From Thermococcus kodakarensis KOD1 (GTDB lineage Archaea; Methanobacteriota_B; Thermococci; Thermococcales; Thermococcaceae): a DNA stretch of 32,000 bases. The DNA lies in NCBI RefSeq assembly GCF_000009965.1, contig NC_006624.1, positions 330,001 through 362,000 of the forward strand, written 5' to 3'. The notes beneath the pieces are model-generated. The model worked only from the letters and a program-made list of their open reading frames with translations. It did no database searches and was not told the origin of the DNA. Shown piece after piece: positions 2,751-16,887 of the stretch (position 1 is its first letter; each line of letters starts with the position of its first letter). The position numbers and the translations under genes are program-made.

Positions 2751-3722
2751 TCATAGCTCCAATAGTTTTTTCTCTAATTTTTCTTCGTCTTGAAAGAGTT
2801 CATCTTCTATCCTTTTAATCTTCTCTAATAACTCTCTTGTCAGTGTTTTTAATTCCTTTAGCTTCTTTTCCCTTTCTACGAGTTTATTGTATATCTCCGG
2901 CTTTTTCTCAAGGAGAAACTCGTAGAATACTTTTTTTGCCTTATTCCACACTTCTAGTCCATAAAGGCGTTTTTGCTCTGTATTCAGTCCTAATCTACCA
3001 TAAGGGGGGGCAGACAATTGGTTAGATTCTCTAGTTTCTGTATTGGATAGTGTAACGAGCTCCTCTAAAAGAGTATCGGCTTTAATAATATGTGCTTCTT
3101 TTATGTAGAATCTCTCAGCCTCTTCTTGGGATATCCGCTGTAGAGATTCTACGAGCTTAAATTCTCCCTTTAGTGCGTCTATGACCTCTCTTCTCAACCT
3201 ATTCGTATCCGTAACAAGTGAGTTATATTTCTCCAAATTAATATCATACTCCTTCAACAGCCTTTTGATTTTTCTTTTGAGCCTCTCTTCCAAACCTCGT
3301 TCTTGGTAACTCTTCGCCCATCCTGGAGTCTCCGGAGTCTCGGGAGTTAAGTTAGAATATTGAGGAAGCTCATAATAAATAGGCACCTCGTTATGTAGAG
3401 CATCATTAAGCATATCTTCAAGTTTCTTAATGTATCCAATCACTTCATTTTTCATATATTCAATGTTCATACGTTCTTTTTTCATTTCTATCAGGCTCTT
3501 GTTCATAAGTTCAGCTTGCTTTTTAGTTTGCTCAGCTGCCTCTGCAGTAGTAATTGCTTGGACTGCTATAATACCGGCCATAACAATATTCGCTAGAACC
3601 TCTGTAAATTGTAGGAGTATAGAATTTTGTGTATTAGCTCCAACTAAGGCACCAAATCCGGCAATTAAAACAAAAGCCATTATAATAACCATTACAATCA
3701 TTACTTTTCTATTGCTCTCCAA
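2751..3722 (-). CDS. Membrane-anchored long coiled-coil protein
   Basis: N-terminal hydrophobic segments (VMIVMVIIMAFVLIAGFGALVG and ANIVMAGIIAVQAI), followed by ~250 aa of heptad-like charged sequence. Confidence 0.6.
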   Translation of the reverse strand: MESNRKVMIVMVIIMAFVLIAGFGALVGANTQNSILLQFTEVLANIVMAGIIAVQAITTAEAAEQTKKQAELMNKSLIEMKKERMNIEYMKNEVIGYIKKLEDMLNDALHNEVPIYYELPQYSNLTPETPETPGWAKSYQERGLEERLKRKIKRLLKEYDINLEKYNSLVTDTNRLRREVIDALKGEFKLVESLQRISQEEAERFYIKEAHIIKADTLLEELVTLSNTETRESNQLSAPPYGRLGLNTEQKRLYGLEVWNKAKKVFYEFLLEKKPEIYNKLVEREKKLKELKTLTRELLEKIKRIEDELFQDEEKLEKKLLEL

Positions 3723-3808
3723 TCTTATTCCCTCCTACAAGGGGCAGTCTCAGTATCTGTCAAATTAAACTTTATATTGCTGTACTTTTTACTTTTTCTG
3801 GTGATTAC

Positions 3809-4951
3809 ATGCGGAGGAAGGCCCTAGTCCTAAGCCTAGTAGTGATCTTCCTAGCCGCATTTATCAGCGGATGTATCAACAACGGAGAACCAAAGACAGT
3901 GACAGTCACTAAAACAGTCAGGCCAGAAAAGGAAAGTAATGCTCCAGCGACTACAAGTGCCTCACCGAACACGGCATCACAGTTCACACAAACTACATCC
4001 TCACAGAAAACACCCAAGATAAACTGCAATGACGACTCTTGGAGAGATAACTTTAGCCAAGCCTTGACCTGCGCACTTGATCCCAAGATCAACCACAATT
4101 TTGATCCAGTATATTCCCTCTCCCTAACGGGCAACAAGACCAAAGACGCTCTCATCATTACAGACTTCCTCGTTAACTATGTGCATCTAGATGAGTTTGT
4201 AGAGAACCTGAGCATGAAGAAAGGCCATTATTACAACATTAAAACGCCCTACGAGCTTTTCCAGACGAGACAAGGAACTTATGCAGATATGGCTCTGTTC
4301 GGGGCTTATGCTCTAGCCAAGAACGGCTTTGAGACGTACCTCTTTGAAATAGCAACAACAAACGGCTTTGGAGTACTACCTGGCTTTAAGCTTATAGTTA
4401 ATCATCCATGGGTGCCGAACAACGACCCGCTAGTAATATTCTGGCCATTTAGAATACCAATGCGCCTCTCAGCGGCTTTAAAGCTCTTAAACCTCTCTGG
4501 AGAGACCCCTAAAAATGTAACTGTATACACAGTATCCTATAACTCAGGCAAATATAAAGTTGAGAAAGTTGGGACATATCCAGCCAGTGAATTCAAGTTT
4601 AATATTATGGAGTGGGTTCTTTTCGGATTCCCTGACTCAGAGACTATGAACAGGTTGCTTAGTAGAGACTTCCCCGGCTGTAAGTACACTACAAACCTCT
4701 CGGCAATATCCTCGAACCAAGAAGATGTAAAAAATATCAAAGTAGTGTTTCCATATGGAATCCTATTCTACAACGTTCCATTCAAACAGAGGTACACAGA
4801 AATCTTATACACTCTAATGATCTCAAACCAGGAAATCGCCAAAGATCTTCAGAATTGTAGAGTACTGCTCCTCGGTCCGGAGACTGACTTTGACTTCAAC
4901 AACCCACCAGCAAACTACACAGCAACATACAGCGGTTGGGTGAGCAGATAA
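3809..4951 (+). CDS. Putative lipoprotein, possibly with a degenerate transglutaminase-like core
   Basis: Signal peptide with lipobox FISGC. Ser/Thr-rich linker. RQGTYADMALFGAYALAKNGFETYLF resembles the G-x-C-x-x-F-A…G-I-P-x-R transglutaminase-like core, but Tyr sits at the catalytic Cys position (weak). GGTGAT SD and a TATA-like AAACTTTATATTG lie upstream. Confidence 0.55.
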   Translation: MRRKALVLSLVVIFLAAFISGCINNGEPKTVTVTKTVRPEKESNAPATTSASPNTASQFTQTTSSQKTPKINCNDDSWRDNFSQALTCALDPKINHNFDPVYSLSLTGNKTKDALIITDFLVNYVHLDEFVENLSMKKGHYYNIKTPYELFQTRQGTYADMALFGAYALAKNGFETYLFEIATTNGFGVLPGFKLIVNHPWVPNNDPLVIFWPFRIPMRLSAALKLLNLSGETPKNVTVYTVSYNSGKYKVEKVGTYPASEFKFNIMEWVLFGFPDSETMNRLLSRDFPGCKYTTNLSAISSNQEDVKNIKVVFPYGILFYNVPFKQRYTEILYTLMISNQEIAKDLQNCRVLLLGPETDFDFNNPPANYTATYSGWVSR

Positions 4952-5073
4952 CCCTTTCCTTTTCCCTAATAAGTCCAGTCGTTACCTTTAATATTTAGAT
5001 GAGCAATAATAACCGTACCGTAATATATTTAAGGGCCCCTGACATGTTCCATATTAGAGCCAAGAAATAGATC

Positions 5074-5670
5074 ATGGTGACTAGGATGTCCTATGAGAGC
5101 TTTGCTGAAAAAATAAAGTTTAGATCTGGAGAATTCGACAAAGAACTCTTCAAAAGGATCGTTGAATACATTATAGAAAAGGAATTAGTAACTCCTAAAA
5201 GCATAGAAGTATATAGGAGCGGTGTCGAAGTCAAGATACGAGCAATTGCAGAGATGATGTTAGTCGATGAATTTGATCTAGATATAGTCCAAGCAGTTGA
5301 TTATCTAAGTATTGCTTCATTTGTAATCTCAATGACCATACTTTCAAAAATAGAGGGGAACGAACCATCTGATGAGCTAGAAAAGTACATTATCGAAAAA
5401 TTATATACCCCACAGATTAAGGAAATGTTCCTTACCAGAAAATTCATGACGAACCCTATCTTGGAAGAATTTGAAGTCATTAAATTTGTTAAAGATACTC
5501 CTGAAGGGCCCCTTGAAAGCTATGGGGTAAGAATACTAATAGATAAATCAGGAGACAGAGATTTTGACGAGGTATTCCTCGAAACGACAAAAGGCACTCT
5601 CCAAGAGATTGTTAATTACATCAGCGAGGTGATCTCTGATGATGCCCGCAAGAATAGTGAAAAAGAATAA
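5074..5670 (+). CDS. Hypothetical protein, first gene of a three-gene operon
   Basis: ORF with a TATA-like TAATATATTTAAG ~45 nt upstream. Overlaps the next gene by 32 nt. No motif recognised. Confidence 0.55.
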   Translation: MVTRMSYESFAEKIKFRSGEFDKELFKRIVEYIIEKELVTPKSIEVYRSGVEVKIRAIAEMMLVDEFDLDIVQAVDYLSIASFVISMTILSKIEGNEPSDELEKYIIEKLYTPQIKEMFLTRKFMTNPILEEFEVIKFVKDTPEGPLESYGVRILIDKSGDRDFDEVFLETTKGTLQEIVNYISEVISDDARKNSEKE

Positions 5671-6118
5671 AACCTTTTACCATCCCTTTGAAAAGGTATT
5701 CTCTTACAGTAACGTTCGTGAGGTACGCTCTGACCTCATCATAGCTGAAAAGGAAACCTTATTAGATGACATTATCAATGAACTCAGAGAACATTATGGA
5801 CACGTATTCCATGAATCAGTATACACAGAGGATATCTCTGAGAATAAAGCAAAACGTGAAGACAAAATCAAGGCCATTGCTGAGGGTATATTAAAAACAA
5901 TAAAAGAAGTTCCTCACTTAAAGAGACTAGTGCCTATGATTAAAGTTGCTATAGACTTAAACGAAGATTACAACACGAACTTCTTCTATATTATCGTATC
6001 TCTACGGAAGGACAAGATAGAAGAAGCCGCTGATGCTTTTGATAAGCTAGAGGAGAACATCCTTTCTAAGTACCCTGATAAAGATATACGCATTCTCTAT
6101 ACACTCCAAAGTGCTTAA
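5639..6118 (+). CDS. Hypothetical protein, second gene of the three-gene operon
   Basis: GAGGTGAT SD 5 nt upstream of the ATG at 5639, located inside the end of the upstream gene. No nucleotidyltransferase GS…DxD motif. Confidence 0.55.
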   Translation: MMPARIVKKNKTFYHPFEKVFSYSNVREVRSDLIIAEKETLLDDIINELREHYGHVFHESVYTEDISENKAKREDKIKAIAEGILKTIKEVPHLKRLVPMIKVAIDLNEDYNTNFFYIIVSLRKDKIEEAADAFDKLEENILSKYPDKDIRILYTLQSA

Positions 6119-6139
6119 ATCCTGGAGGGATCCCCCGCA

Positions 6140-6718
6140 ATGGAACCCGAAGAATTCAAGGAACTTGCAAGATATTTAGAGGGACTCCTTAACGAACGCA
6201 ATATTACAAAAGAGATCTCAAATGAGGCCATCGTAAGAACTACAATTGGAAGATACTATTATTACATTTTTCTGAAACTCAGAAATGAGATTATTGATGC
6301 AATAGACAATACAATAGACGTGTATAAAAAGGAAAATCCCAAATATGTAGTTTCACTCACTCAGCTGAAAAAAGCTATAGAGCCTGTTTTACCTGGCACT
6401 AGCAAGTCATCAAAAACCAGTGTCCACCAAGTTATCCAACTGTTCCTGGATGAATTCGCAGACTTAACCGTAGCGGATGCCTTGTATAGACTCAGATGGC
6501 GTCGCAATTTTGCAGATTATCACTTAAAAACACCAATAGAAACCAAACTCCGTGGAGAAGAAATAACTATAAAATTCCAACGTGAAGAACTTGTAATGAT
6601 ACGGCGCGATATCGCAAAGATAGAGAAATGGTTGCAAGAAAAAAGATTTCCAATACATAGCGCACTAAACTCAGAAGAAGCTCCAGAAAAAATTGAAAGC
6701 ATACTAAAAACCAAATGA
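6140..6718 (+). CDS. HEPN-like protein (putative RNase/toxin domain)
   Basis: N-terminal helix AIVRTTIGRYYYYIFLKLRNEI resembles the HEPN sRaYYa.Fha helix. LYRLRWRRNFADYH contains an Rx5H / R..ADY HEPN signature. GGAGGGAT SD upstream. Confidence 0.5.
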   Translation: MEPEEFKELARYLEGLLNERNITKEISNEAIVRTTIGRYYYYIFLKLRNEIIDAIDNTIDVYKKENPKYVVSLTQLKKAIEPVLPGTSKSSKTSVHQVIQLFLDEFADLTVADALYRLRWRRNFADYHLKTPIETKLRGEEITIKFQREELVMIRRDIAKIEKWLQEKRFPIHSALNSEEAPEKIESILKTK

Positions 6719-6760
6719 AAATAATTTTTCATATCCTACTCATCTGTCAACACCTCTCAA

Positions 6761-6790
6761 TGAGACGACCGTTTAATGGTAAACCCATAG
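6761..6790 (+). promoter_or_regulatory. Degenerate copy of the conserved 30-nt box upstream of the AbrB paralogs (TGAGACGACCGTTTAATGGTAAACCCATAG), followed by hairpin GTCGGAC-aac-GTCCGAC (6817-6833)
   Basis: 19/30 matches to the 8871 box with a shared core TTAAYGGTAAACC. A strong TATA-like TTATAAAATATAT at ~6838-6850 precedes the ATG at 6892. Confidence 0.45.
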
Positions 6791-6891
6791 GCATTAATTC
6801 TCGAAAAATAAACAAGGTCGGACAACGTCCGACATAGTTATAAAATATATGACCTCAATAATTACGATAATTATACTAGGAGTTGAGGCCA

Positions 6892-7266
6892 ATGCCCGAC
6901 CAGGACGCCAGCGAAGCAAGGGTAGTCGAGCCACTAGCCAAGTTTCATGCGAAAGTCACTAGGGGTGGTCAGTTCACATTTCCATTATACACCCGGCTTT
7001 ATCATAACCTCGACGTTGGGGACTACGTTGAATTAATCATAAGAACCAAAGTGGATGGCGAAGTGCTCAGAGGGATGTTCATAGCCAGACTCGTTGATAA
7101 GGGCAATATTACAATACCCAAGGGCCTTAGGAGCGAGATGAAAATTGACCAGAATTCGATTATAGAAGTCATAGTTGTCAGGGCATACCGGCTGAAAGAC
7201 TTATTGGGAGACAAAGCCAAGTTTATACGTCAATTAGCCCTCAAAAAATACAAGATTCTCACTTGA
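6892..7266 (+). CDS. Tandem SpoVT/AbrB-domain DNA-binding protein, paralog 1 (divergent N-terminus)
   Basis: Two swapped-hairpin-like halves (GGQFTFPLYTRLYHNLDVGDYVELII and KGNITIPKGLRSEMKIDQNSIIEVIV). EPLAKFHAK is shared with paralogs 2-4. The ATG at 6892 sits in the same GAG-TGAG-CCAATG context as the other copies; the track start at 6883 is TTG. Confidence 0.65.
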   Translation: MPDQDASEARVVEPLAKFHAKVTRGGQFTFPLYTRLYHNLDVGDYVELIIRTKVDGEVLRGMFIARLVDKGNITIPKGLRSEMKIDQNSIIEVIVVRAYRLKDLLGDKAKFIRQLALKKYKILT

Positions 7267-7699
7267 ATCTTAGCTCTGTAAGCTTTTTGAGAATCCAAAA
7301 GCAAGAATAGACCATACCCAAAGATACCATAAAACTGGCAAGAACTAAGTACCCAAAAATTCTGTTGTGCGGTAAGCTTGCCCCACCAATTATTGAAAGT
7401 GTTAAGACAACAAGCAGAAACATGAACGTAACATAATATATGGTATAACTCTGTTTAAAGGACTTAAACTGTTGTAGTTCTCTATATATCTCTACATCGG
7501 GGAGGGCATGTAATATTGTAACTCCCACTAATACGAATCCCGCGAGGGCGCCTGAGATTGATGCCATTGTCCAGTAGAAATCGGGAGTAGGATCTAACAC
7601 TTTCAGAGGTCCATGAATGGTTAGAACTATCACACATATAAATGCAATAAGCCCCCCAACAATGCCCCTGCGAAGTATCTTGGGAAGCATTACACTCAT
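7259..7699 (-). CDS. Small integral membrane protein (~4 TM helices), second gene of a two-gene operon
   Basis: Four hydrophobic stretches (GIVGGLIAFICVIVLTI, ISGALAGFVLVGVTIL, YYVTFMFLLVVLTLSII, FGYLVLASFMVSLGMVY). Starts 17 nt after the upstream stop. The 3' end overlaps the convergent AbrB paralog 1 by 8 nt. Confidence 0.65.
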   Translation of the reverse strand: MSVMLPKILRRGIVGGLIAFICVIVLTIHGPLKVLDPTPDFYWTMASISGALAGFVLVGVTILHALPDVEIYRELQQFKSFKQSYTIYYVTFMFLLVVLTLSIIGGASLPHNRIFGYLVLASFMVSLGMVYSCFWILKKLTELRFK

Positions 7700-7716
7700 G
7701 ATTTAGAGCTACAATT

Positions 7717-8730
7717 TTAACCTTTTAAAGACTTTTCAATTTTGTCATATAGGTCATTGTAAGCCTCAATGATTTTATTATACATATATTCTGTGTCCAC
7801 TCTTGATAGCTCTTCCTTAGCACGGATAACCTTTTTAGTAGAAATCAGTTTGTCCTCAAAAATATGCTTTTCTTTTAGTTCGTGCGTTTTAGGATCTTCG
7901 TATTTTATAATGATATTCTCCACAACCCCTAATTTATCGTTTATCCTCATCAAGTCATTCAAAAGCGAAATTACGGTGTCTTTTGAGAGTCTCTTCTTTT
8001 TATACCGTCCATCCACTACTGCTTTTATTTCAACTAAGTCAGGCTCTAAGAGATAAATATAATCTCCTAACAAATCTGTTATGTCTTCTTCCATTTTCTT
8101 TTCATGTTTCATATAATAGGCATACTTTGTTGCTGCCATTTTTATATGCATTGAAACTACGCGAGGCGATCTTAAAAGTTCCTCAATAAACTCTCTATAG
8201 TATACCTCATCGAGATCAATTATATTTGGCTGTCCAAATAGATACTTGCTAAGGAAATATTTTAACTGATATACTGTAGGCCCCTCTTTATATCTCTCCA
8301 TCCCAACTATGCCATTAGGAAAAACAACAAAGTGGGTCGGATAATACAGTCTCTCCTTTCGGCTTTTATCTAACTGTATACCATCTTCATGACCAGCTTC
8401 ATCAATTTTTGTGGGAAGATCTCTCTCCTTCCCATACCCAATTCTCGCTGTGATAAGCCCTCTCTCAGGCCCACCCACCCATGGAATCAGATTGAATCTC
8501 GATGGATCGTCCCTAATTAGGATTAGATCTTGCCCTGGTGTATACCGAGTTTCTAAAATGCTATTCATGGATAGGTTACTATCAAGAAAATCAAATGGAT
8601 CATTTAGGAAATCTTCAAACTTTTTTCGAAACCTTGGGTCGAGTATTTTCCCCTGCTTGTAATTCTTCAAAATAGCGTCCCCTGGAATTAATCTGTAAAA
8701 GTATATCTTACGCTCCAGATACTCTTTCAT
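7717..8730 (-). CDS. 337-aa soluble hypothetical protein, first gene of a two-gene operon with the 4-TM protein
   Basis: Long AT-rich ORF. ATG at 8730 is preceded by GGGGGAC (the track start at 8757 is GTG). No catalytic motif recognised. Confidence 0.6.
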   Translation of the reverse strand: MKEYLERKIYFYRLIPGDAILKNYKQGKILDPRFRKKFEDFLNDPFDFLDSNLSMNSILETRYTPGQDLILIRDDPSRFNLIPWVGGPERGLITARIGYGKERDLPTKIDEAGHEDGIQLDKSRKERLYYPTHFVVFPNGIVGMERYKEGPTVYQLKYFLSKYLFGQPNIIDLDEVYYREFIEELLRSPRVVSMHIKMAATKYAYYMKHEKKMEEDITDLLGDYIYLLEPDLVEIKAVVDGRYKKKRLSKDTVISLLNDLMRINDKLGVVENIIIKYEDPKTHELKEKHIFEDKLISTKKVIRAKEELSRVDTEYMYNKIIEAYNDLYDKIEKSLKG

Positions 8731-8870
8731 ATTAGTCCCCCATCTAAGTTTACACACCCACTTAAATAATTTCCGTACGTAATCCTTACGCCCTACCTTA
8801 GTGTTTCAGTTTTACCCTTCTCATACCGCTTAGAATCCAGAGAGGTCAAGGTAAAGCCTGAGAAGGCTAC

Positions 8871-8900
8871 TGAATCAGTCGCTTAACGGTAAACCTTATG
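8871..8900 (+). promoter_or_regulatory. Conserved 30-nt box TGAATCAGTCGCTTAACGGTAAACCTTATG in the divergent intergenic region between the 337-aa gene and AbrB paralog 2
   Basis: 28/30 identical to 11468-11497. Contains a BRE/TATA-like GTAAACCTTATG. Followed by the weak inverted repeat CTTATG-n11-CATAAG. Confidence 0.55.
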
Positions 8901-8952
8901 AGGATTTCAACCATAAGAATAATTCGTAAAATCAGCACACTGAGGTGAGCCA

Positions 8953-9372
8953 ATGAAAGAAACCAAAGAACCACTAGCGAAGTTTCAAGCAAAGATGAAC
9001 AAGGATGGAAGGGTTAGCCTCCCAAAGCAAATAAAGGATGTTCTAGAACTTGAATCAGATGATTACCTAAAGGTTATAATCCGCAAGATAAAAGCAAAAA
9101 AAGATGAGGGAATTATCTATGTTTATGGGCAAGAATTTGCCATCCTAAGGGTTGGAGTCAGAGGATACGTTGTGGTTCCACAGAAGGTTCGTAGACAGCT
9201 CAAACTCAAACCAGATGATAGTGTTGAAATAGTAATCCTCGATTATTATCCATCAACCACCGATCCTCAAAACATTGGAAAGCTAACTGAAGCTACAAGA
9301 TTCAAATATCTTTTTTCACCAGAAACAGGAGATCCAAACGGAACTAGAAAATATGCAGAGGTGGTCTCATGA
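8953..9372 (+). CDS. Tandem SpoVT/AbrB-domain DNA-binding protein, paralog 2
   Basis: MKETKEPLAKFQAK leader. GRVSLPKQIKDVLELESDDYLKVII and RGYVVVPQKVRRQLKLKPDDSVEIVIL halves. GGTGAGCCA precedes the ATG. Confidence 0.7.
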   Translation: MKETKEPLAKFQAKMNKDGRVSLPKQIKDVLELESDDYLKVIIRKIKAKKDEGIIYVYGQEFAILRVGVRGYVVVPQKVRRQLKLKPDDSVEIVILDYYPSTTDPQNIGKLTEATRFKYLFSPETGDPNGTRKYAEVVS

Positions 9373-9794
9373 AAGAAACCAAAGAACCACTAGCGAAATT
9401 TCAAGCAAGGGTTAACAAAGACAACCGCGTAACTATCCCTCGGCCAATCCTCGAAGCATTCGGCCTAAAACAAAACGACTACGTCAAAGTTCTAATCAGA
9501 AAAATCGAAATATCAGACAAAACAGTTACGGTAATCGCTCAAGCCCTTCTGGCAGTGAAAATCGGAAAGTATGGAGCCATAACACTCCCAAAAAAACTCG
9601 TAAAAGAGTTTGAGTTGAGAGAAAACGAGCCGGTTGAAGTCATCATTTTGGATTATTACAAATTCGAGGAGTTAGTAAGTGAAAAAGGCAAAGAGCTTTT
9701 ATCCAAGCTTCAGTCAAGAAACAACTACTGGATTCTTCCGGCCGATTCTCAATATCTGTCTGAGATAGGTATCAAATACAAATATCTTTTTTGA
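9369..9794 (+). CDS. Tandem SpoVT/AbrB-domain DNA-binding protein, paralog 3
   Basis: ATGA overlap with paralog 2. NRVTIPRPILEAFGLKQNDYVKVLI and GAITLPKKLVKEFELRENEPVEVIIL halves. Its first 29 nt are identical to paralog 2, and the first 26 nt are identical across paralogs 2-4. Confidence 0.7.
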   Translation: MKETKEPLAKFQARVNKDNRVTIPRPILEAFGLKQNDYVKVLIRKIEISDKTVTVIAQALLAVKIGKYGAITLPKKLVKEFELRENEPVEVIILDYYKFEELVSEKGKELLSKLQSRNNYWILPADSQYLSEIGIKYKYLF

Positions 9795-9897
9795 GCGTTT
9801 AATATATACATATATATAATAATTCTTGAAAAAGAAGAAAGAAGAGAAGAGATAAGGCATGTTTTCTGTCCGCTGATGGCTTCTTTTCTGAAGGTTA

Positions 9898-9917
9898 AAT
9901 TTTTGTATCCAAAAATT
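9898..9917. repeat. 20-nt perfect palindromic repeat AATTTTTG-TATC-CAAAAATT, copy 1
   Basis: Identical to 10060-10079. 8-bp inverted arms with a 4-nt spacer. Confidence 0.8.
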
Positions 9918-10059
9918 CTGGCTGATTCAACTAGGAAAAGTAACGGCTCTTTGGATGAATAAGACGTTTTTAGAGCTTTGCACTTCTGTGCACTTAACTA
10001 CTTTTGAACGTTGCAAAATTGAGACCTCTAAATTATTACTTATTGTGGTATTTCAGCAG

Positions 10060-10079
10060 AATTTTTGTATCCAAAAATT
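10060..10079. repeat. 20-nt perfect palindromic repeat AATTTTTG-TATC-CAAAAATT, copy 2
   Basis: Identical to 9898-9917, 162 bp away, inside a ~400-bp non-coding AT-rich region. Confidence 0.8.
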
Positions 10080-10155
10080 AGACGTAACAACTCTGCCCAA
10101 CGTTGAACTTCTCCAGCCACACAAAACTTATAAACTTTCCATCCGTACGATTTAT

Positions 10156-10168
10156 GTGGAAATTCCAC
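10156..10168. promoter_or_regulatory. Palindrome GTGGAA-A-TTCCAC preceded by CCGTACGATTTATG; candidate promoter/operator of the 53-aa RHH-like gene
   Basis: Perfect 6-bp arms. The position and flanking CCGTAC-AT-TTA-G motif mirror the site at 12213-12243 upstream of the paralogous RHH gene. Confidence 0.45.
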
Positions 10169-10202
10169 TTAAGTGAAATATCCACAATAAGGTGGTGATG
10201 GG

Positions 10203-10364
10203 ATGCCGAAGAGGAGGAAGTGGAGGGCTGTGAGAAGGATCGAGGTTCAGCTTCCGCCGGAGAAGGCGGATGAGCTTGAGCAGGCTAAGGGAAAGCTCTC
10301 TTGGGGCGACTTCGTTTGGAAACTTTGGGAGTTCTGGAAGCTTCACCACCCTGAAACATCTTGA
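10203..10364 (+). CDS. Small RHH-like protein (53 aa), paralog of the 12266-12433 product; not in the ORF track
   Basis: My translation is MPKRRKWRAVRRIEVQLPPEKADELEQAKGKLSWGDFVWKLWEFWKLHHPETS. It aligns with KRFEAWIPYEVYKEMEAVKQRLGASWSELVQSMWEVYK of the 12266 ORF. GGTGGTGAT SD upstream. Confidence 0.55.
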   Translation: MPKRRKWRAVRRIEVQLPPEKADELEQAKGKLSWGDFVWKLWEFWKLHHPETS

Positions 10365-10375
10365 AGGTGTTATGA

Positions 10376-10552
10376 ATGCCAGCGAAGAGATACCAGCGAC
10401 GTTCAGCAGGCCCTGGACGGCCACGAAAATACGGGGAAGACTTAAAGAAGTTCCAATCTCCAGTTCCCGAATCAACATACGACGGGCTGGTCCCATTATA
10501 CTCGTTGTGCACTGTGCATAATGATTATGCAAGATGCATAACACTTATATAG
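10376..10552 (+). CDS. Small protein (58 aa) with a GPGRPRK AT-hook-like motif; looks like a truncated paralog of the N-terminus of the 12439-13467 product; not in the ORF track
   Basis: My translation is MPAKRYQRRSAGPGRPRKYGEDLKKFQSPVPESTYDGLVPLYSLCTVHNDYARCITLI. The 12439 protein starts MRIPARGPGRPRKWKSP. AGGTG SD 6 nt upstream. Confidence 0.45.
   Translation: MPAKRYQRRSAGPGRPRKYGEDLKKFQSPVPESTYDGLVPLYSLCTVHNDYARCITLI
10515..10531. promoter_or_regulatory. Palindrome TGCATAAT-g-ATTATGCA with a third TGCATA and the TATA-like CTTATATAG; candidate promoter/operator for the 49-aa ORF
   Basis: Perfect 8-bp arms. The TATA-like box at 10544-10552 lies ~32-40 nt upstream of the ATG at 10584. A 12-bp palindrome TTCCGTACGGAA at 10557-10568 lies between them. 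Confidence 0.45.
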
Positions 10553-10583
10553 TTTCTTCCGTACGGAATTATGGTGAGAGAAG

Positions 10584-10733
10584 ATGGCAAAATTTAATGG
10601 GTACGAACTGACCCTAGAAACTCCAGAAGAGCTCCAAAACTTTGTCATGGCATTCGAAAAAGCCAACAAACGCAACCCAAAAGAAGTAGAAGACACCGTT
10701 AAGAGAGCCCTGGCTATCGCCGGCCTTATCTGA
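10584..10733 (+). CDS. Small hypothetical protein (49 aa), convergent with and overlapping the GNAT gene by 8 nt; not in the ORF track
   Basis: GGTGA SD 8 nt upstream of the ATG. My translation is MAKFNGYELTLETPEELQNFVMAFEKANKRNPKEVEDTVKRALAIAGLI. Confidence 0.4.
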   Translation: MAKFNGYELTLETPEELQNFVMAFEKANKRNPKEVEDTVKRALAIAGLI

Positions 10734-11310
10734 GTTCTTTACCTCCCAAATGTTTTATTAAAGCCCTTCTAACTTCCATCGCTTCATTAACAAACGGATA
10801 GAATAATTCATATGTGCCACCCTTAGAAACAACCTGGAATCCACTTGCTAGAGGGTCTCTTTCAGGATTCAAATAAAACCTCTTTGCCACTTTCTTATCA
10901 GCGTGAAGAGACAACCCTACACCACCAATTTGAGCCGCATAAAGAACCGCATAAGGCTTAATTACCTTTGCTAGTAGTTCTCCGCCAATTCTCTTTCCCC
11001 GATATTCCTTCTGAAGACAGAACTGGCCAAGAAGAATAGTGGGCACAGAAGAATACTTGATGTCCATTCCCACCAACTTTACGAGCTTCTTCCTCAAGTC
11101 TTCAATAAGTTCCTTTTTAGATTCTTCCATATCCTTACGGATTTTAAGGCTAACTATAAACGGAGAAAGAGTAAAATAAGAGATGAGTTGACCTTCCTCA
11201 CCAAGAACAACAAAAACCGTTGAAAGGCATCTCCTATGAACATCCCACGCTTCTCGCCTAGCAAACTTCGTCTGCTCTTCTCCACCCTCACCACAATCAA
11301 CACCCCTCAT
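10726..11310 (-). CDS. GNAT-family N-acetyltransferase
   Basis: Acetyl-CoA motif A (LQKEYRGKRIGGELL = Q/R-x-x-G-x-G/A). Size (194 aa) and beta-alpha pattern are typical of GNATs. Confidence 0.65.
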   Translation of the reverse strand: MRGVDCGEGGEEQTKFARREAWDVHRRCLSTVFVVLGEEGQLISYFTLSPFIVSLKIRKDMEESKKELIEDLRKKLVKLVGMDIKYSSVPTILLGQFCLQKEYRGKRIGGELLAKVIKPYAVLYAAQIGGVGLSLHADKKVAKRFYLNPERDPLASGFQVVSKGGTYELFYPFVNEAMEVRRALIKHLGGKELR

Positions 11311-11467
11311 TACTCTGCATTATCCTCTCTCAAAAATTCTACCCGAACCTTCTCTCCAAGAGTATCCAATGTAACTTCGTAGGGTTTTATCATCCCGACA
11401 CCAAACCCAAGTCCCGATGCAGGCTTTAAGTAAATTACGGATGGAAAGATTACTTCGCACTGTCTTG

Positions 11468-11497
11468 TGAATCAGTCACCTAACGGTAAACCTTATG
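11468..11497 (+). promoter_or_regulatory. Conserved 30-nt box TGAATCAGTCACCTAACGGTAAACCTTATG between the GNAT gene and AbrB paralog 4, followed by hairpin TGTATGCCC-ga-GGGCATACA (11496-11515)
   Basis: 28/30 identical to 8871-8900. The 9-bp-arm inverted repeat overlaps its 3' end. Confidence 0.55.
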
Positions 11498-11563
11498 TAT
11501 GCCCGAGGGCATACAAAAAACAAGCAATACACCATTAACTAAAATCCAAAAGAGGGTGAGCCA

Positions 11564-12001
11564 ATGAAAGAAACCAAAGAACCACTAGCAAAATTCCACG
11601 CACGGCTCGATAAGGAAGGGAGGATAGCTATCCCCAAGACAATTAGAGAAGCGTTGAACATAGAGAAGAACGATTACGTTGAGGTTATTGTTCGTAAAAT
11701 TGAGATCAATCCTGAGAAATCAATAATCAAAGTTCTTAAGCAAGGGTATTTGGTAGCCAGGGTAGGAGCTAAAGGGTTAATTTTCCTTCCAGCCGATCTC
11801 AAACGTGATTTCGACCTCCACGAGAAAGATATCATTGAAGTTTTGCTGCTTGGATATCACAAATTTGACGAATTGGTCAGTGAAAAAGGCAAAAAACTGC
11901 TCTCAAAGGTTCAAACATCGGGCAAATGGATTGAGGTCAAGCAGGATGAACTCATTCCAGAGGATAAAGTAATGAAACATTTCACTTATGTTTTTGTTTG
12001 A
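11564..12001 (+). CDS. Tandem SpoVT/AbrB-domain DNA-binding protein, paralog 4
   Basis: MKETKEPLAKFHAR leader. GRIAIPKTIREALNIEKNDYVEVIV and KGLIFLPADLKRDFDLHEKDIIEVLLL halves. The C-terminal FDELVSEKGKKLLSK is shared with paralog 3. Confidence 0.7.
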   Translation: MKETKEPLAKFHARLDKEGRIAIPKTIREALNIEKNDYVEVIVRKIEINPEKSIIKVLKQGYLVARVGAKGLIFLPADLKRDFDLHEKDIIEVLLLGYHKFDELVSEKGKKLLSKVQTSGKWIEVKQDELIPEDKVMKHFTYVFV

Positions 12002-12224
12002 GTTTAATATTAAGTACTTAAAATTAAAGAAAGAGAAAAGAGAAGAATAGAGAAGAGTGTTGGTCTTTTGGCGTATTCTCATGGCTTCTTTAGAACCTCT
12101 CAAATTAATATGCAGGAAAAATATTTCTAATTACTACTATAAAGCGTCATAAGTTGAACTCTTTTGGAGACCCTTATACACTGTTGTCCACGAAATCTTT
12201 TTAAGGAAATCTTCCGTACTATCT

Positions 12225-12243
12225 TACGAGAAATATTCTCGTA
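12225..12243. promoter_or_regulatory. Palindrome TACGAGAA-ata-TTCTCGTA preceded by CTTCCGTACTATCTTACG; candidate promoter/operator of the backbone RHH gene
   Basis: Perfect 8-bp arms ~25 nt upstream of the ATG at 12266. Its architecture parallels 10144-10168. Confidence 0.45.
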
Positions 12244-12265
12244 TGAGAAAAAATCTCGTAAGGTG

Positions 12266-12433
12266 ATGGCAGTGGGAAGGCGGGGGAAGTATGATGGACC
12301 TGTCAAACGCTTCGAAGCGTGGATACCATATGAAGTCTACAAGGAGATGGAGGCTGTAAAACAGCGGTTAGGTGCTTCTTGGTCAGAACTTGTTCAGAGC
12401 ATGTGGGAAGTATACAAAGCTACGAGAAGGTGA
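12266..12433 (+). CDS. Small RHH-like DNA-binding protein (55 aa)
   Basis: The internal ATG at 12266 follows an AT-rich promoter-like region. The track start at 12164 is TTG and spans the palindrome. RFEAWIPYEVYKEMEAVKQRLGASWSELV fits a strand-helix-helix pattern. Confidence 0.55.
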   Translation: MAVGRRGKYDGPVKRFEAWIPYEVYKEMEAVKQRLGASWSELVQSMWEVYKATRR

Positions 12434-12438
12434 ATCTT

Positions 12439-13467
12439 ATGAGAATACCCGCGAGAGGTCCAGGCCGACCAAGAAAATGGAAGAGCCCGCTAATACAATG
12501 GAGAAGCGATGTACCTTTAGAGGATTTTGAATTTGCTGAGGAGAAAAGGACTGAATTGGGCCTCTCGCGGGCAGAATTCTTCCATGCTCTCTTACACCAC
12601 ACCAACTGGAGTGTGGTAGAGCTTCATGCAGAAAATAAAAAGAAAGACGAGCTTCTCGAAGAGAAAGACCGCTACATTGAGGAGCTGGTGAAACTTCTTG
12701 AAAAAGAGCGTCAGGCCCGTGAAAGGGCCGAGAAAGAGGCCGAAGCCTGGAAGCAAAAGTACTACGAGCTTAAGGGCGAGAAGCCAGCCCACACCTACAA
12801 CGAGGGCAAGCTCCTCCGCCAGCTTGCTGAGAACGCGAAGGAAGACGTCTCGTGGGCCGACCTCTGCGCTGAGGTTCTTGACCTAAGAGATGAGAAGAAG
12901 ATGCGCCGGCTCATGAGCCTTGCCTTCAACATCGAGAAGTCGGACAAGAACAACTACAAGAGCATTTTCTACCCGAAGAGGACAGCTCCAGAGTTCAAGG
13001 GTTGGGTTCTCAAGCGTCCGGAGCGCGACGGCCCGGTTCTGCTGGTCGACTACGTCCTCTACAAGGAAGACACCCTCAAGGCGGCTAAGGGCCTCGCTGT
13101 GGGGGAGGCCGCGGCCGAGAAGGTTCCTGAGGTCAAGCCTTTGAAGACCGGAAAGGCGGCCGAGCGCTGGCTTGAGATGTTCTTCGAGGTCGTCCACCGC
13201 AATTACATGGACTTGATCAACCAGAAGCGCGGCAAGGACGCGGTGAAGTACCTGGAAGAGGCCGTGCCGGAGAAGCTTGAGCAGGTCCTCCAGGACATTG
13301 ATCCAGCAGACTGGCGCCGCGCAGTGCTGGCAGTGCTCGATGAGCTTGAGGCCAGGGCTGAAGGGGATGAGAGGTATGAAGTTTTCGTTTCTAACCTGCG
13401 GCGCGTTGTTCTGCGCGCCCTGAACGAGTTTTACGCAAAACCTGCCGAGGTGAAGGCCGATGTCTGA
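12439..13467 (+). CDS. 342-aa protein with N-terminal GPGRPRK AT-hook-like / RHH-like region, a central coiled coil and an unknown C-terminal domain
   Basis: GGTGA SD 6 nt upstream of the ATG at 12439. LSRAEFFHALLHH is RHH-like. EKERQARERAEKEAEAWKQKYYELKGEK is a coiled coil. Confidence 0.6.
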   Translation: MRIPARGPGRPRKWKSPLIQWRSDVPLEDFEFAEEKRTELGLSRAEFFHALLHHTNWSVVELHAENKKKDELLEEKDRYIEELVKLLEKERQARERAEKEAEAWKQKYYELKGEKPAHTYNEGKLLRQLAENAKEDVSWADLCAEVLDLRDEKKMRRLMSLAFNIEKSDKNNYKSIFYPKRTAPEFKGWVLKRPERDGPVLLVDYVLYKEDTLKAAKGLAVGEAAAEKVPEVKPLKTGKAAERWLEMFFEVVHRNYMDLINQKRGKDAVKYLEEAVPEKLEQVLQDIDPADWRRAVLAVLDELEARAEGDERYEVFVSNLRRVVLRALNEFYAKPAEVKADV

Positions 13468-16533: not shown

Positions 16534-16887
16534 ATGCCGAGGAGAAGGAAGCTTCCTGACTATGTTGCCCTGAAGATCCCAACTTACGAGCCTGCAGACA
16601 ATCCACTCGAGCTAATCTTCGATGGCAGAAGCCTTGAAGTGGCCCTCAAGGTTCTTGAGTATATCAAAGAGCACGGTCGCCTTTATCCTGACGACTACAA
16701 AGAGTTATTCCCTGAGAAGACCGACCAGGTGCTCTACTTCCGCGTCATCAAGAAAATGCTCGCCCTCAAAATGCTCCGTGTCAGCTCTGACAAGTCATAC
16801 ATCCTCAGCGATGGCTTTTCTAACCGCATGGAGACAATCGCCAAGCTCTGGAAGTTCCAGATTGGCGACCTGAAGGACTTATGGTGA
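16534..16887 (+). CDS. Hypothetical protein with MPRRRK N-terminus, possible wHTH
   Basis: GGAGGTG SD upstream. The N-terminal MPRRRK resembles the MPKRRK of the 10203 ORF. VLEYIKEHGRLYPDDY…VIKKMLALKMLRV is wHTH-like (weak). Confidence 0.5.
   Translation: MPRRRKLPDYVALKIPTYEPADNPLELIFDGRSLEVALKVLEYIKEHGRLYPDDYKELFPEKTDQVLYFRVIKKMLALKMLRVSSDKSYILSDGFSNRMETIAKLWKFQIGDLKDLW

Follow-up and report, generated by a model that had tools for sequence, protein, structure and literature searches.

The TKV2 locus and its tandem AbrB genes

The window (the whole 32,000-nt stretch that was analysed, whose positions are used throughout) belongs to Thermococcus kodakarensis KOD1, where it corresponds to element TKV2, a plasmid of the pT26-2 family that has integrated at tRNA-Glu. 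Two of its proteins match KOD1 entries exactly, homologs of t26-14p (37% identity, E 8e-86), t26-15p, t26-20p (four times), t26-28p and t26-30p are colinear within it, and it contains the tRNA-Glu with which TKV2 is paired in the list of Badel 2019. The genes under study and this tRNA are the following:

6892..7266, +: copy 1, TK0402 (named from its coordinates), tandem AbrB gene of the PhS018/t26-20p family, subfamily 0
8953..9372, +: copy 2, TK0405, subfamily 3, exact match to BAD84594
9369..9794, +: copy 3, TK0406, subfamily 5
11564..12001, +: copy 4, TK0409, subfamily 1, exact match to BAD84598
17142-17219: tRNA-Glu

A sequence-only reading of this DNA had called four tandem-AbrB paralogs, each forming a single-chain pseudo-dimer, and of this claim the first part was confirmed and the second is supported. 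The four ORFs are present on the plus strand at the positions first assigned to them, and all four proteins match PF04014 (AbrB/MazE), those of copies 2 and 3 via two separate stretches. The structure prediction which that reading had proposed as a check, an AF2 model of copy 4 (pLDDT 86), has two beta-alpha-beta halves in a single chain, its best Foldseek match being PhS018 (PDB 2GLW; TM 0.81, 36% identity), an entry also matched in a profile search (E 3.8e-21). The model and this match support the prediction that each of these proteins forms a pseudo-dimeric AbrB barrel from one chain.

The genes are members of a small family in Thermococcales, exemplified by the pT26-2 protein t26-20p, to which TK0402 is 34.7% identical, and by PhS018, whose structure is solved; t26-20p and the pGE2 homolog were matched in tblastn. 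Members share two AbrB-like halves (swapped-hairpin barrel), an N-terminal EPLAKF(H/Q), EPLAKF being found in almost every full-length member, and a C-terminal helix, and only 36 clusters at E<=1e-10 were retrieved among 1.84 billion representative proteins. The four genes are thus already known single-chain AbrB-type regulators and no new kind of system, the family having been described (t26-20p in Soler 2010) and TK0402, TK0405, TK0406 and TK0409 carrying an existing SpoVT/AbrB annotation. As to individual copies, copy 1 has a long leader MPDQDASEARVV ahead of EPLAKF, and copy 2, whose orthologs terminate at ...KYLFLDV, has a C-terminal extension running through the copy 3 ribosome-binding site, its stop overlapping the copy 3 ATG. 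Copy 3 has its own primary start site by dRNA-seq, at 9331 within copy 2.

Promoters of the AbrB genes

The upstream regions contain the following boxes and palindromes:

6761..6790, +: degenerate box of copy 1, core TTAATGGTAAACC at 6773-6785
6817..6845: palindrome GTCGGAC-AAC-GTCCGAC (6817-6833; z -4.88), then copy 1 TATA TTATAAAA (6838-6845)
8871..8902, +: box of copy 2, with upstream half TGAATCAGTCGCTTAA, BRE-like CGGTAAAC (8887-8894), TATA TTATGA (8896-8901) and mapped start 8926
8895..8917: weak palindrome CTTATG-N11-CATAAG between TATA and start of copy 2 (z -1.15, not significant)
11468..11498, +: box of copy 4, with TATA TTATGT (11493-11498), mapped start 11522 and a 42-nt 5' UTR
11496..11515: palindrome TGTATGCC-CGAG-GGCATACA between TATA and start of copy 4, candidate operator (z -3.69)

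The box noted earlier upstream of copies 2 and 4 (8871-8900 and 11468-11497) is indeed 28/30 identical, and it is a promoter, because the published dRNA-seq primary start sites 338926 and 341522, corresponding to window positions 8926 and 11522, fall 27.5 and 26.5 nt past its TTATGA and TTATGT. Consensus and spacing both agree with the TTWTAW box that Thermococcus promoters carry at about -27, accompanied by an A-rich BRE; the 3' half of the 30-nt box is the BRE/TATA of the TK0405 and TK0409 primary starts and the 5' half a conserved upstream element. The box is kept in the same orientation, around 85 nt ahead of the start codon, in loci L008-L011, L016 and L025 and in 11 metagenome contigs, and the idea of a shared regulatory element at the DNA level holds for this promoter with its mapped starts. 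The degenerate version described for copy 1 is present, with its core TTAAYGGTAAACC recurring at 6773 and only around 19/30 matching positions, but it is not the promoter of copy 1, as it sits 76-105 nt upstream of the mapped start; this start, at 6866, is served by TTATAA at 6838-6843.

A hairpin had also been reported after each box, which stands for boxes 1 (z -4.9) and 4 (z -3.7) but not for box 2, where it is weak (z -1.15). The palindrome and TATA of copy 1 are flanked by starts on both sides, 6866 (+) and 6813 (-). In these promoters a palindrome of variable sequence sits between the TATA and the start site, and the stems found at the equivalent position differ in L016, L010, L008, L011, L063 and L072. 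The AbrB-promoter palindromes are also unlike those of the small-gene promoters of the same module, so that a single protein binding both promoter types is not evident; RHH proteins may be the putative regulators of the small-gene promoters.

Downstream module, cargo and putative function

Downstream of copies 3 and 4 lie the following features:

9795..10202: conserved ori-like intergenic region, with an AT-rich stretch, a purine tract, two palindromes AATTTTTGTATCCAAAAATT and a promoter-like AAACTTATAAAC with three TTAWGTGGA half-sites
10203..10364, +: small RHH-like ORF, paralog (E 9e-7) of the t26-21-position gene 12266-12433, in a second, partial module
10376..10552, +: truncated TK0410-like N-terminus (MPAKRYQRRSAGPGRPRKYGEDLKKF...), of the type seen in L011, L012 and L021
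12002..12265: spacer after copy 4; its purine tract is common with 9820-9850, and inverted repeats CTTACGAGAA/TTCTCGTA precede the small gene
12266..12433, +: small RHH-like gene occupying the t26-21 position
12379..13467 (annotated 12439-13467), +: TK0410, with GPGRPRK and an RHH-like N-terminus, and a coiled coil

The position of the family is shown to be fixed, after variable cargo and before an ori-like spacer, a small RHH-like gene and a replication-side gene, and it stays beside the replication module regardless of the cargo. The order AbrB, small gene, TK0410-like gene is kept in 11 loci, the gene downstream of AbrB being t26-22p in pT26-2, pGE2 and L023, and MCM in P. kukulkanii. In the window, copy 4 is syntenic with t26-20p and is followed by the ori-like spacer, the small gene and TK0410; the second, partial module spans 9369-10552, and copies 1 and 2 lack an intact module downstream. 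The region 9795..10202, 74-79% identical to L010, L011, L012 and L021, is a candidate ori position, based on GC-skew predictions for other family members (Soler 2010, Badel 2019); Badel 2019 found no conserved ori sequence among family members. The AbrB subfamily varies together with both the flank and the N-terminal type of the TK0410-like protein.

In KOD1, TK0402, TK0405 and TK0409 have 324-1436 reads versus 0-33 for TK0410-TK0420; TK0410 (0.5-30 reads) is silent, and published dRNA-seq has no start site for it or for the small RHH-like gene 12266..12433. The AbrB proteins are putative DNA-binding repressors, whose promoters would be constitutively active and probably autoregulated; they may keep the replication/backbone module silent when integrated, or set the copy number of the free plasmid, subfamily divergence possibly being the source of specificity. 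Autoregulated repression of the plasmid maintenance/replication module is most likely their putative role. The silence of TK0410-TK0420 beside expressed AbrB genes is only a correlation, and histone/chromatin effects on the GC-rich backbone, or a missing activator, could explain it equally well.

The sequence-only reading had proposed that each AbrB paralog may be a dedicated repressor or antitoxin of its adjacent cargo, whether HEPN operon, DUF6731/4-TM pair or GNAT gene, which we consider unlikely. The gene arrangement relative to the cargo is as it described, antitoxins commonly contain AbrB/MazE domains, and cargo genes face copies 2 and 4 across divergent intergenic regions with active starts at 8741(-)/8926(+) and 11402(-)/11522(+). 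Candidate defence genes are present as well, the HEPN call being backed by PADLOC (HEPN_IX, E 5.6e-7) and the 4-TM protein being weakly RexB-like (the GNAT call is weak), and a toxin is found directly upstream of AbrB on the same strand in L026 (MazF), L004 (ParE) and L089 (HicA). However, these toxins have upstream partners of their own (RHH/MazF, 78-aa gene/ParE, HicB-like/HicA), a single nuclease-like cargo family (cluster 5) lies beside subfamilies 2 (L001), 5 (L007) and 0 (L020), and the L008 ortholog of the GNAT gene faces another operon, in which a 130-aa gene is followed by subfamily 5 and then by subfamily 2. The subfamilies track the ori-like flank and the replication-side genes, not the cargo, and the antitoxin reading is not supported.

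Conserved gene ends and probable exchange between related plasmids

Conserved ends are found at these positions:

8944..8978, +: ribosome-binding site GGTGAGCCA and 26-nt 5' coding end, copy 2
9291..9316, +: conserved 3' gene end (...FKYLF codons and T-run) inside copy 2
9369..9394, +: 26-nt 5' coding end, copy 3, with a differing ribosome-binding region GGTGGTCTC
9767..9792, +: conserved 3' gene end of copy 3 (...KYKYLF and T-run)
11555..11589, +: ribosome-binding site GGTGAGCCA and 26-nt 5' coding end, copy 4

Copies 2-4 open with the same 26 nt, ATGAAAGAAACCAAAGAACCACTAGC, as had been observed, with exactly three occurrences versus 0 expected; the 5' UTR shared by copies 2 and 4 amounts to the preceding 9 nt (9/9), and copy 1 does retain part of the leader, GAGCCACTAGCCAAGTTTCATGC. 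This conservation is confined to the leader and first codons, also as proposed: identity between the copies drops to 58-60% over the following 111 nt, and codons at identical amino acids are themselves identical for 7-8 of the first 8 versus 35-42% later. Agreement of the three genes at the KETKEPL codons has P ~2e-6 under the island's own codon usage, and for copies 2 and 4 only 0.8-2.5% of usage-weighted synonymous variants are as little structured as the native codons. The 5' identity is, as shown in part, the sum of three causes: a probable protein-level constraint on MKETKEPLAKF (invariant EPLAKF motif), A-rich codons which would keep the translation start region nearly unstructured, and putative recombination or gene conversion at the conserved ends. 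The share of recombination is uncertain, since copies 2 and 4 resemble each other in patches (the box, 43-57 unrelated nt, then the ribosome-binding site and 26 nt), which fits discrete functional elements better than one conversion tract; the remaining same-contig paralog pairs have 2-6 nt differences in the 26-nt stretch.

Recombination at the 5' end, as suggested earlier, is borne out in other genomes, where the conserved segment is present and joined to differing bodies. The same promoter and leader are fused there to bodies of different subfamilies with a clean breakpoint right after EPLAKF, L031 and L036 being 100% identical through ...AAGTTTCA and then about 55-60%, and in L007 a solo truncated 5' end (MKETKEPLAK, then TK-stop) adjoins a cargo gene. 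The MKETK nucleotide haplotype is seen in five subfamilies, and same- and different-subfamily pairs have the same distribution of leader mismatches (8.9% versus 8.7% identical); leader similarity is independent of body relatedness. At the 3' side, 9291..9316 doubles as TATA region for starts 9331 (+) and 9279 (-), and at 9767..9792 begins the homology to the flank that follows subfamily-3 genes in L011, L012 and L021. The 3' flanks said to be shared by copies 3 and 4 are so to a modest extent, 36/55 identical just past the stop and around 55% further on.

It is improbable that the ribosome-binding site and 26 nt were selected, without recombination, as a common RNA/DNA target (antisense or small RNA, translational operator, start-codon protein site), although synonymous codons are frozen only at codons 2-9, the segment lies within mapped mRNAs, its native sequence is near the least structured possible, minus-strand antisense starts occur at the 3' ends of copies 2, 3 and 4 (9279, 9794, 11962), and the patchy conservation would suit discrete elements. 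Across the family, codons vary freely (GTGAARGARAGCARR, ATGAAAGAAGCCAAG; CCA/CCG/CCT and CTA/CTG/CTC/TTA/TTG in EPLAKF) and in around half of the members the leader is long and unrelated, so that no single nucleotide sequence is required; an Rfam search of this segment gave no match, and exchange is documented by the clean chimeric junctions of other genomes. Dedicated integron- or shufflon-like recombination, with the box and gene ends as sites for capturing or reordering AbrB-plus-cargo cassettes, seems to us very improbable. The sharp left edge of the conservation, recurring about 10-12 nt ahead of TTAACGG, the varying cassette order between elements, the serine and tyrosine recombinases carried by pT26-2-family elements and the unrelated sequence (truncated MCM) adjoining the AbrB 5' end in L019 would be in agreement with it. 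Nevertheless, the box is accounted for by promoter function with mapped starts, tandem-gene junctions differ in length and sequence, the arrays are linked to a recombinase gene neither in the window nor in the loci, and the L031/L036 breakpoint falls inside a coding motif, as expected of homology-driven exchange.

The best overall explanation, which we hold to be reasonably probable, combines the TKV2 AbrB family, its promoter box, exchange at the gene ends and putative repression of the backbone. The conserved ends, at the 5' side promoter, ribosome-binding site and first 13 codons, and at the 3' side the ...KYLF codons and ori-like flank, may act as crossover points between related plasmids, so that bodies, promoters and adjacent cargo would be reshuffled. 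From the mosaics described we infer a history of accretion, in which TKV2 would have gained four genes of four old subfamilies and the second, truncated downstream module; the array order is inverted between the window and L021.

The four genes, their family and their setting in TKV2

All four tandem-AbrB genes announced by the sequence-only reading are present as open reading frames on the + strand, each with a match to Pfam PF04014 (AbrB/MazE). They are given here with an ATPase and a peptidase gene of the window, for which exact-sequence matches were also obtained; copies 1 and 3 were named by position, subtraction of 330000 converting genome to window coordinates.

6892-7266, +, copy 1, TK0402: ORF with PF04014
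8953-9372, +, copy 2, TK0405: ORF with PF04014 in two separate stretches; exact-sequence match
9369-9794, +, copy 3, TK0406: ORF with PF04014 in two separate stretches
11564-12001, +, copy 4, TK0409: ORF with PF04014; exact-sequence match
230-1693, ATPase, TK0394: exact-sequence match
18573-20423, peptidase, TK0423: exact-sequence match

The four proteins share pairwise identities of 26-46% and are encoded in TKV2 (TK0381-TK0421), one of the four 'virus-like regions' of KOD1, which is listed as a member of the pT26-2 plasmid family with tRNA-Glu as its site (Badel 2019). The homologs of t26-14p (37% identity, E 8e-86), t26-15p, t26-28p and t26-30p follow pT26-2 order in the window, and the assignment to the family rests on core genes in conserved order (here t26-14p and t26-15p) plus the tRNA-Glu, the core genes t26-5p to t26-13p lying left of the window and outside this test. 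The AbrB genes are within an AT-rich island of about 38-44% GC over 3000-12500, compared with 51-57% GC in the backbone. This island is the variable region of TKV2; it has been published as the heat-sensitive AT-rich locus HICR1, and spontaneous loss of the TKV2 region has been described in a chromatin mutant. At the right end of TKV2, TK0421 (16881-17273, +) overlaps the tRNA-Glu (17142-17219, -), the arrangement expected if TK0421 were one part of a split integrase of SSV type; however, no match was obtained for it by Pfam or by tblastn with the pT26-2 integrase. Rfam returned the tRNA alone over the window, and a C/D-box sRNA or riboswitch-like leader was weighed by eye and dropped.

In respect to protein architecture, the AlphaFold model (AF2) of copy 4 (pLDDT 86, pTM 0.81) has duplicated strand-helix-strand units, and its top Foldseek match is PDB 2GLW, the PhS018 protein of Pyrococcus horikoshii (TM 0.81, 36% identity), with MraZ as a distant second. 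The structure was modelled for copy 4 only, the fold of copies 1-3 following from the alignment, and the family profile matches 2GLW with E 3.8e-21. The proposed single-chain pseudo-dimer is thus borne out, although the idea had already been published for PhS018, a single-chain, internally duplicated swapped-hairpin/RIFT barrel that has been discussed as an intermediate between AbrB-like and double-psi barrels. By tblastn the family is also present in pT26-2 (t26-20p) and pGE2, t26-20p matching all four window copies with E 5e-19 to 7e-12. Membership of a PhS018/t26-20p family of Thermococcales mobile elements is evidenced by two AbrB-like β-α-β halves per chain (Pfam, copy 4 model), by the similarity to both proteins and by the (EP)LAKF[HQ] motif, invariant in the four window copies; across the family EPLAKF[HQ] is invariant or nearly so, and is preceded either by five leader codons (MKETK, VKESK, MKEAK and others) or by a leader of 7-12 residues that is unrelated to these. 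The family is small, comprising 55 clusters in a word-indexed search and 36 clusters at E<=1e-10 in an exhaustive search of 1.84 billion representatives. Its named members are almost all from Thermococcus or Pyrococcus, and no member was found in the viral contigs searched. The library proteins P0086, P0092 and P0098 are versions of TK0402, TK0409 and TK0406, respectively, that differ from the KOD1 genes exclusively by C-to-T changes (P>L, A>V, H>Y, R>W): these are probably artefacts, bisulfite-type or deaminated KOD1 reads having been assembled as normal ones, and they inflate the apparent diversity of the family.

Promoters, start sites and the conserved 5' ends

The 30-nt upstream box attributed to copies 2 and 4 was found as described, with 28/30 identical positions between 8871-8900 and 11468-11497, and its core TTAAYGGTAAACC recurs at 6773. 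Primary start sites for the four genes are available from dRNA-seq (Jäger et al. 2014, Additional file 2):

6866 (genome 336866), TK0402 start site, 5' UTR 26 nt
8926 (genome 338926), TK0405 start site, 5' UTR 27 nt
9331 (genome 339331), TK0406 start site, inside TK0405, 5' UTR 38 nt
11522 (genome 341522), TK0409 start site, 5' UTR 42 nt

The hexamers TTATGA and TTATGT at the 3' ends of the two boxes, both preceded by CGGTAAAC, are centred 27.5 and 26.5 nt upstream of the TK0405 and TK0409 start sites, respectively. Indeed, the box fits a Thermococcus promoter, with a TATA element (TTWTAW) around -27, immediately preceded by an A-rich BRE, and pyrimidine/purine at -1/+1, and the start positions of both genes were predicted from it ahead of finding the dRNA-seq data. 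The box is the promoter of TK0405 and TK0409, so that the idea of a shared DNA-level element is upheld, anchored by the sites mapped at 8926 and 11522. Copy 1 is transcribed from another TATA element, TTATAA at 6838-6843, and therefore its degenerate box is a relic or distal element. A box originating as a tRNA fragment or att remnant was dropped in view of its AT-richness, its fixed distance to the start codon and the mapped start site downstream, while a box serving a proximal promoter around TAAAATC is excluded for copy 4 by the mapped start sites, as TAAAATC lies at +18. For the divergent cargo genes TK0404 and TK0408, the promoters are at the expected places, with start sites at 8741(-) and 11402(-), respectively.

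Outside KOD1, six homologous loci (L008, L009, L010, L011, L016 and L025) and 11 hydrothermal metagenome contigs keep the box about 85 nt upstream of the start codon and in unchanged orientation; there it precedes genes of at least five subfamilies, and family promoters without it carry AAACCTTTTAAGC or similar in the same place. About 45 of the 56 metagenome box matches are due to chance, falling in coding sequence for ...NGKPY, and the four matches in viral contigs are all chance ones in coding sequence. The hairpin said to follow each box was confirmed as a significant palindrome after boxes 1 and 4, whereas the palindrome after box 2 is not significant. In copy 4 the palindrome TGTATGCC-CGAG-GGCATACA (11496-11515) is located between TATA and start site, and at other loci palindromes with other stems (GTATGACC..GGTCATAC and GTATTC..GAATAC) occupy the same place. 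This is the usual binding place of archaeal repressors, and the palindrome is, as judged from sequence, a candidate operator. No operator common to the AbrB promoter and the small-gene promoter of one module was found, the palindromes being different; those at the small-gene promoter may belong to RHH proteins instead.

Two further features of transcription in the region were observed. Published antisense start sites map to the 3' ends of copies 2-4 or their vicinity (9279(-), 9794(-) and 11962(-)) and to a position shortly before copy 1 (6813(-)). The conserved ...KYLF/T-run seems to act in addition as a TATA region for both directions, and antisense RNAs over the AbrB genes are possible. A motif TTCC(W)TCCGTA / TTCCGTACG stands beside the TATA boxes of many promoters in these elements (window 8771, 10137, 10557 and 11446(-); loci L001, L006-L012, L021 and L025); since its reading on the transcribed strand is CGTACGGAAA-TATA, the motif belongs to a BRE-proximal sequence that these promoters share, and it may mark an element-specific promoter class.

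The identical 5' ends claimed for copies 2-4 were also recovered, the 26-mer ATGAAAGAAACCAAAGAACCACTAGC occurring exactly three times in the window as compared to 0 expected, and being directly preceded by GGTGAGCCA in copies 2 and 4. Over the following 111 nt identity goes down to 58-60%. Where the amino acids are the same, codons are identical in 7-8 of the first 8 positions and then in 35-42%, and the agreement of three genes at the KETKEPL codons has P about 2e-6 under the island's own codon usage. Three factors are supported as sources of this identity, namely protein constraint, translation and recombination. The first is evident from EPLAKF being the family signature. With regard to translation, among usage-weighted synonymous variants of the A-rich codons 2-9 only 0.8-2.5% are less structured at the start region in copies 2 and 4, the corresponding value for copy 3 being 16%. 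As for recombination, members of five subfamilies, on contigs that come from different MAGs, have an identical or almost identical MKETK nucleotide haplotype, and other members of those subfamilies have VKESK-type or long leaders; in agreement, the distribution of mismatches over the 26 nt is alike for same- and different-subfamily pairs, with identical fractions of 8.9% vs 8.7%. L031 and L036, whose bodies belong to subfamilies 5 and 1, are 100% identical from the box through ...GAACCACTGGCGAAGTTTCA and then only about 55-60% identical, and L007 contains a solo 5' end, MKETKEPLAK followed by TK and a stop, abutting the 3' end of a cargo gene. The suggested recombination at the 5' site is thus substantiated by a clean breakpoint, a solo end and a leader haplotype that runs across subfamilies. 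The conserved 3' end (...KYLF codons plus T-run) is where homology to the downstream flank begins, and the array order differs at the same downstream flank, being subfamily 3 then 5 in the window and 5 then 3 in L021.

In the family as a whole, synonymous sites of these codons vary freely, and therefore no single nucleotide sequence is required. Given that conservation between copies 2 and 4 is patchy and that other same-contig paralog pairs differ by 2-6 nt within the 26-nt stretch, the most fitting reading of the three-way identity in TKV2 is constraint together with some share of local homogenisation.

Position in the elements, proposed role and known systems

One genome per species was scanned with the back-translated motif, which resulted in 26 loci, 23 of them Thermococcales contigs. 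Eleven loci have a small gene and a TK0410 homolog after the last AbrB gene, all on the same strand; the gene downstream of AbrB is t26-22p in pT26-2, pGE2 and L023 and an MCM gene in P. kukulkanii, and a T. litoralis-type contig presents an equivalent layout after the T26-6p...DUF87 core. This conserved downstream order indicates that the AbrB gene belongs to the backbone and lies where the variable cargo gives way to the replication side. TK0410 itself showed no similarity to t26-22p and no match in the plasmid collection. Copy 4 precedes a complete set of ori-like spacer, small gene and replication-side gene, and copies 2 and 3 precede a truncated one; copy 1 has lost this position, which its orthologs in L005 and L017 retain. 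Tandem arrays of two or three family genes are also found in L008, L010/L036, L020 and L021, in different subfamily combinations, and at their junctions, as in TK0405/TK0406, the upstream gene runs through the ribosome-binding site of the next and ends at an ATGA overlap.

The region 9776-10480, downstream of copy 3, is 74-79% identical to the AbrB downstream regions of L010, L011, L012 and L021. Its features are as follows.

Downstream of copy 3: AT-rich stretch, purine tract and two AATTTTTGTATCCAAAAATT palindromes
Downstream of copy 3: promoter-like AAACTTATAAAC, then three TTAWGTGGA half-sites
10203-10364: small ORF, paralog of the small gene 12266-12433
10376-10552: truncated TK0410-like N-terminus of the same type as in L011, L012 and L021

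From this flank homology, the small-ORF paralog and the truncated N-terminus we regard 8953-10552 as a second, decayed copy of the module formed by AbrB, ori-like spacer, small gene and replication-side gene, a double layout also present in L010. The 3' flanks of copies 3 and 4, described as shared, have only a modest likeness, with 36/55 identical positions directly after the stop and about 55% further on. The AATTTTTGTATCCAAAAATT palindromes are identical copies (9898-9917 and 10060-10079) on either side of a 140-nt core, and the intergenic region holding them is a candidate replication origin or partition site of the plasmid lineage. The annotated TK0407 (10152-10544, -) overlaps the + strand remnants, i.e. 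the small RHH-like gene and the truncated TK0410-like N-terminus, and is possibly not a genuine reading frame, even though the position is transcribed (195-513 reads). An unannotated 49-aa ORF at 10584-10733 (+), MAKFNGYELTLETPEEL..., has a mapped start site at 10573 with a CTTATATAG TATA, classed in the TSS table solely as antisense to TK0407, and an ortholog beside the GNAT gene in L008. In L019, a truncated MCM (3084-3848, N-terminal and OB domains only, 254 aa) overlaps with its end the AbrB gene start and looks like a replication gene cut by insertion of the AbrB module.

The proposal that the AbrB proteins are repressors or antitoxins specific to the adjacent cargo did not hold. One nuclease-like cargo family faces subfamilies 2 (L001), 5 (L007) and 0 (L020), and the GNAT ortholog in L008 faces another operon. 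Toxin genes do occur immediately upstream of AbrB genes:

L026, 2017-2643: RHH+MazF pair
L004, 5484-6008: small gene + ParE/RelE pair
L089, 8674-9986: HicB-like + HicA pair

However, these belong to three families with their own partners and no toxin partner is conserved beside the AbrB family, which also speaks against a type II antitoxin. What the loci show is a build-up of cargo immediately before the AbrB gene, a slot in which addiction and defence cargo seems to land by preference. In pT26-2-type plasmids the variable region changes by exchange at short conserved gene ends, and as a result AT-rich cargo (TA modules, HEPN, nuclease-like genes) collects just upstream of them.

AbrB subfamily instead co-varies with the downstream side, namely with the flank, with the small gene and with the kind of N-terminus that the TK0410-like protein has. 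Expression in KOD1 is given below.

Reads per gene in KOD1 (range over five libraries)
TK0402: 324-629
TK0405: 860-1436
TK0406: 38-246
TK0409: 364-604
TK0410-TK0420: 0-33

The published dRNA-seq table contains no start site for the small gene or TK0410. Considering the co-variation with the downstream module and this expression pattern, we favour a model in which the AbrB proteins would be autoregulated repressors, holding the replication/backbone module off in the integrated state or, alternatively, setting copy number in the free plasmid. The model extends the suggestion made for t26-20p, a putative SpoVT/AbrB regulator beside the predicted replication origin for which copy-number control was proposed (Soler et al. 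2010). Sequence-specific DNA binding and regulation by the family is something we infer from the fold, the operator-like palindromes and the expression pattern.

Among the closest known counterparts is t26-20p itself (pT26-2, Thermococcus sp. 26/2; homologs in pGE2, TKV3 and further pT26-2-family elements), a protein of the same family, 33-40% identical, with EPLAKFQ, two AbrB halves and the same position, between the variable genes on one side and the predicted ori, small gene and replication gene on the other. Unlike pT26-2 and pGE2, which have one copy, TKV2 has four, of four subfamilies, two of them in one fused operon. PhS018 has the same barrel, and its LAKFH and LLLGHYK motifs are common to the window family; its 92 residues comprise the barrel only, whereas the window proteins add a leader of 5-12 residues and a C-terminal part of 40-50, with a KFDELVSEKGK helix and a Y-x-Y-[LV]-F tail. 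MraZ, the dcw cluster repressor, likewise combines two swapped-hairpin halves in a single polypeptide that binds to promoter DNA, and MraZ structures are the next-best matches (E 4e-3 to 4e-2, identity about 15%, TM about 0.35). With its PF02381 model only one half of copy 4 is matched, at 23.7 bits (cut-off 23), and the NCBIfam models give 17-20 bits where the cut-offs are 160-240; membership is rejected, MraZ being another family with a dcw context (mraZ-rsmH-ftsL) and a different oligomeric ring, and the window genes being in a plasmid. The AbrB/MazE/VapB/PrlF antitoxins and AbrB/SpoVT regulators, which autoregulate from their own promoters, share the half-domain PF04014, and the family profile matches AbrB, SpoVT and Sso7c4-like chains with E around 1e-3. 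However, each chain of these proteins contributes one half-domain to a homodimer, has a C-terminal part for toxin binding or sensing and is encoded beside a toxin gene, whereas a single chain of the window family contains both halves and is not linked to a cognate toxin; conservation in the family extends to the C-terminal helix and tail. Integron-like cassettes, which would call for a neighbouring integrase with an attI site and for attC-type imperfect palindromes at the cassette ends, were likewise rejected, as no integrase is beside the arrays, the boundaries are promoter and coding motifs, and tandem-junction lengths vary.

The mosaic immunity regions of temperate phages and plasmid incompatibility modules resemble the AbrB loci in having diverged repressor alleles (putative ones in the AbrB case) flanked by conserved recombining sequence. 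By analogy, their repressor is on and their replication genes silent when integrated, which may compare to KOD1, where the AbrB genes are on and TK0410-TK0420 silent; in contrast to phage immunity regions, the fold is different, several alleles are in tandem per element, and repression and immunity are here putative. A speculative extension, which we consider improbable, is that the AbrB arrays serve plasmids as an 'immunity collection', in which every subfamily would be directed at a single lineage of pT26-2-type plasmids and silence its replication/maintenance module, the repressor genes of rivals being captured by homologous exchange at the conserved promoter/leader and 3' end, so that TKV2 with its four subfamilies would exclude or tame several competing plasmids, its own backbone being silent too. 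If true, this would be a new archaeal mechanism of plasmid incompatibility or superinfection exclusion. Since T. kodakarensis is genetically tractable, both this idea and the repressor role are directly testable, and the question is relevant to TKV2 stability because of the spontaneous loss in the chromatin mutant.

The fold, family and element of the four genes are already known, and this is not a new kind of system. In published accounts of pT26-2-family elements and TKV2 we found no description of a promoter box connected with mapped start sites, of the tandem arrays and their leader haplotypes, of mosaic junctions at the 5' and 3' gene ends or of co-variation with the downstream module. 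The analysis refines known biology in a tractable model organism: a family previously only annotated receives a regulatory layout, with an experimentally anchored promoter and a candidate operator between TATA and start site, and its subfamilies are tied to the plasmid replication side and not to cargo.

Observations on the cargo genes

Pfam and NCBIfam gave nothing firm on most cargo and backbone proteins. The GNAT-like TK0408 (11304-11393 and 10726-11310, -) looks interrupted: its start site is mapped at 11402(-), and an ORF that begins at 11393 (MIKPYEVTLDTLGEKVRVEFLREDNAE) corresponds to the N-terminal part of the uninterrupted ortholog in L008 and ends in two stops where the annotated TK0408 ATG (11310) begins in another frame, so that TK0408 is either a frameshifted pseudogene or has a mis-set start. 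The 4-TM protein TK0403 (7259-7699, -) has a weak PADLOC match to RexB (E 1e-3), and TK0404 upstream of it (337 aa, 7717-8757, -) a weak match to DUF6731 (25.9 bits vs a cut-off of 27); the layout recalls RexAB-type abortive infection, the scores being below any threshold. TK0399-TK0401 form a three-gene operon at 5074-6718 (+), in which TK0401 matches PADLOC HEPN_IX with E 5.6e-7 and nothing in Pfam or NCBIfam, and TK0399, with 930-2570 reads, is among the most highly transcribed genes of the island.
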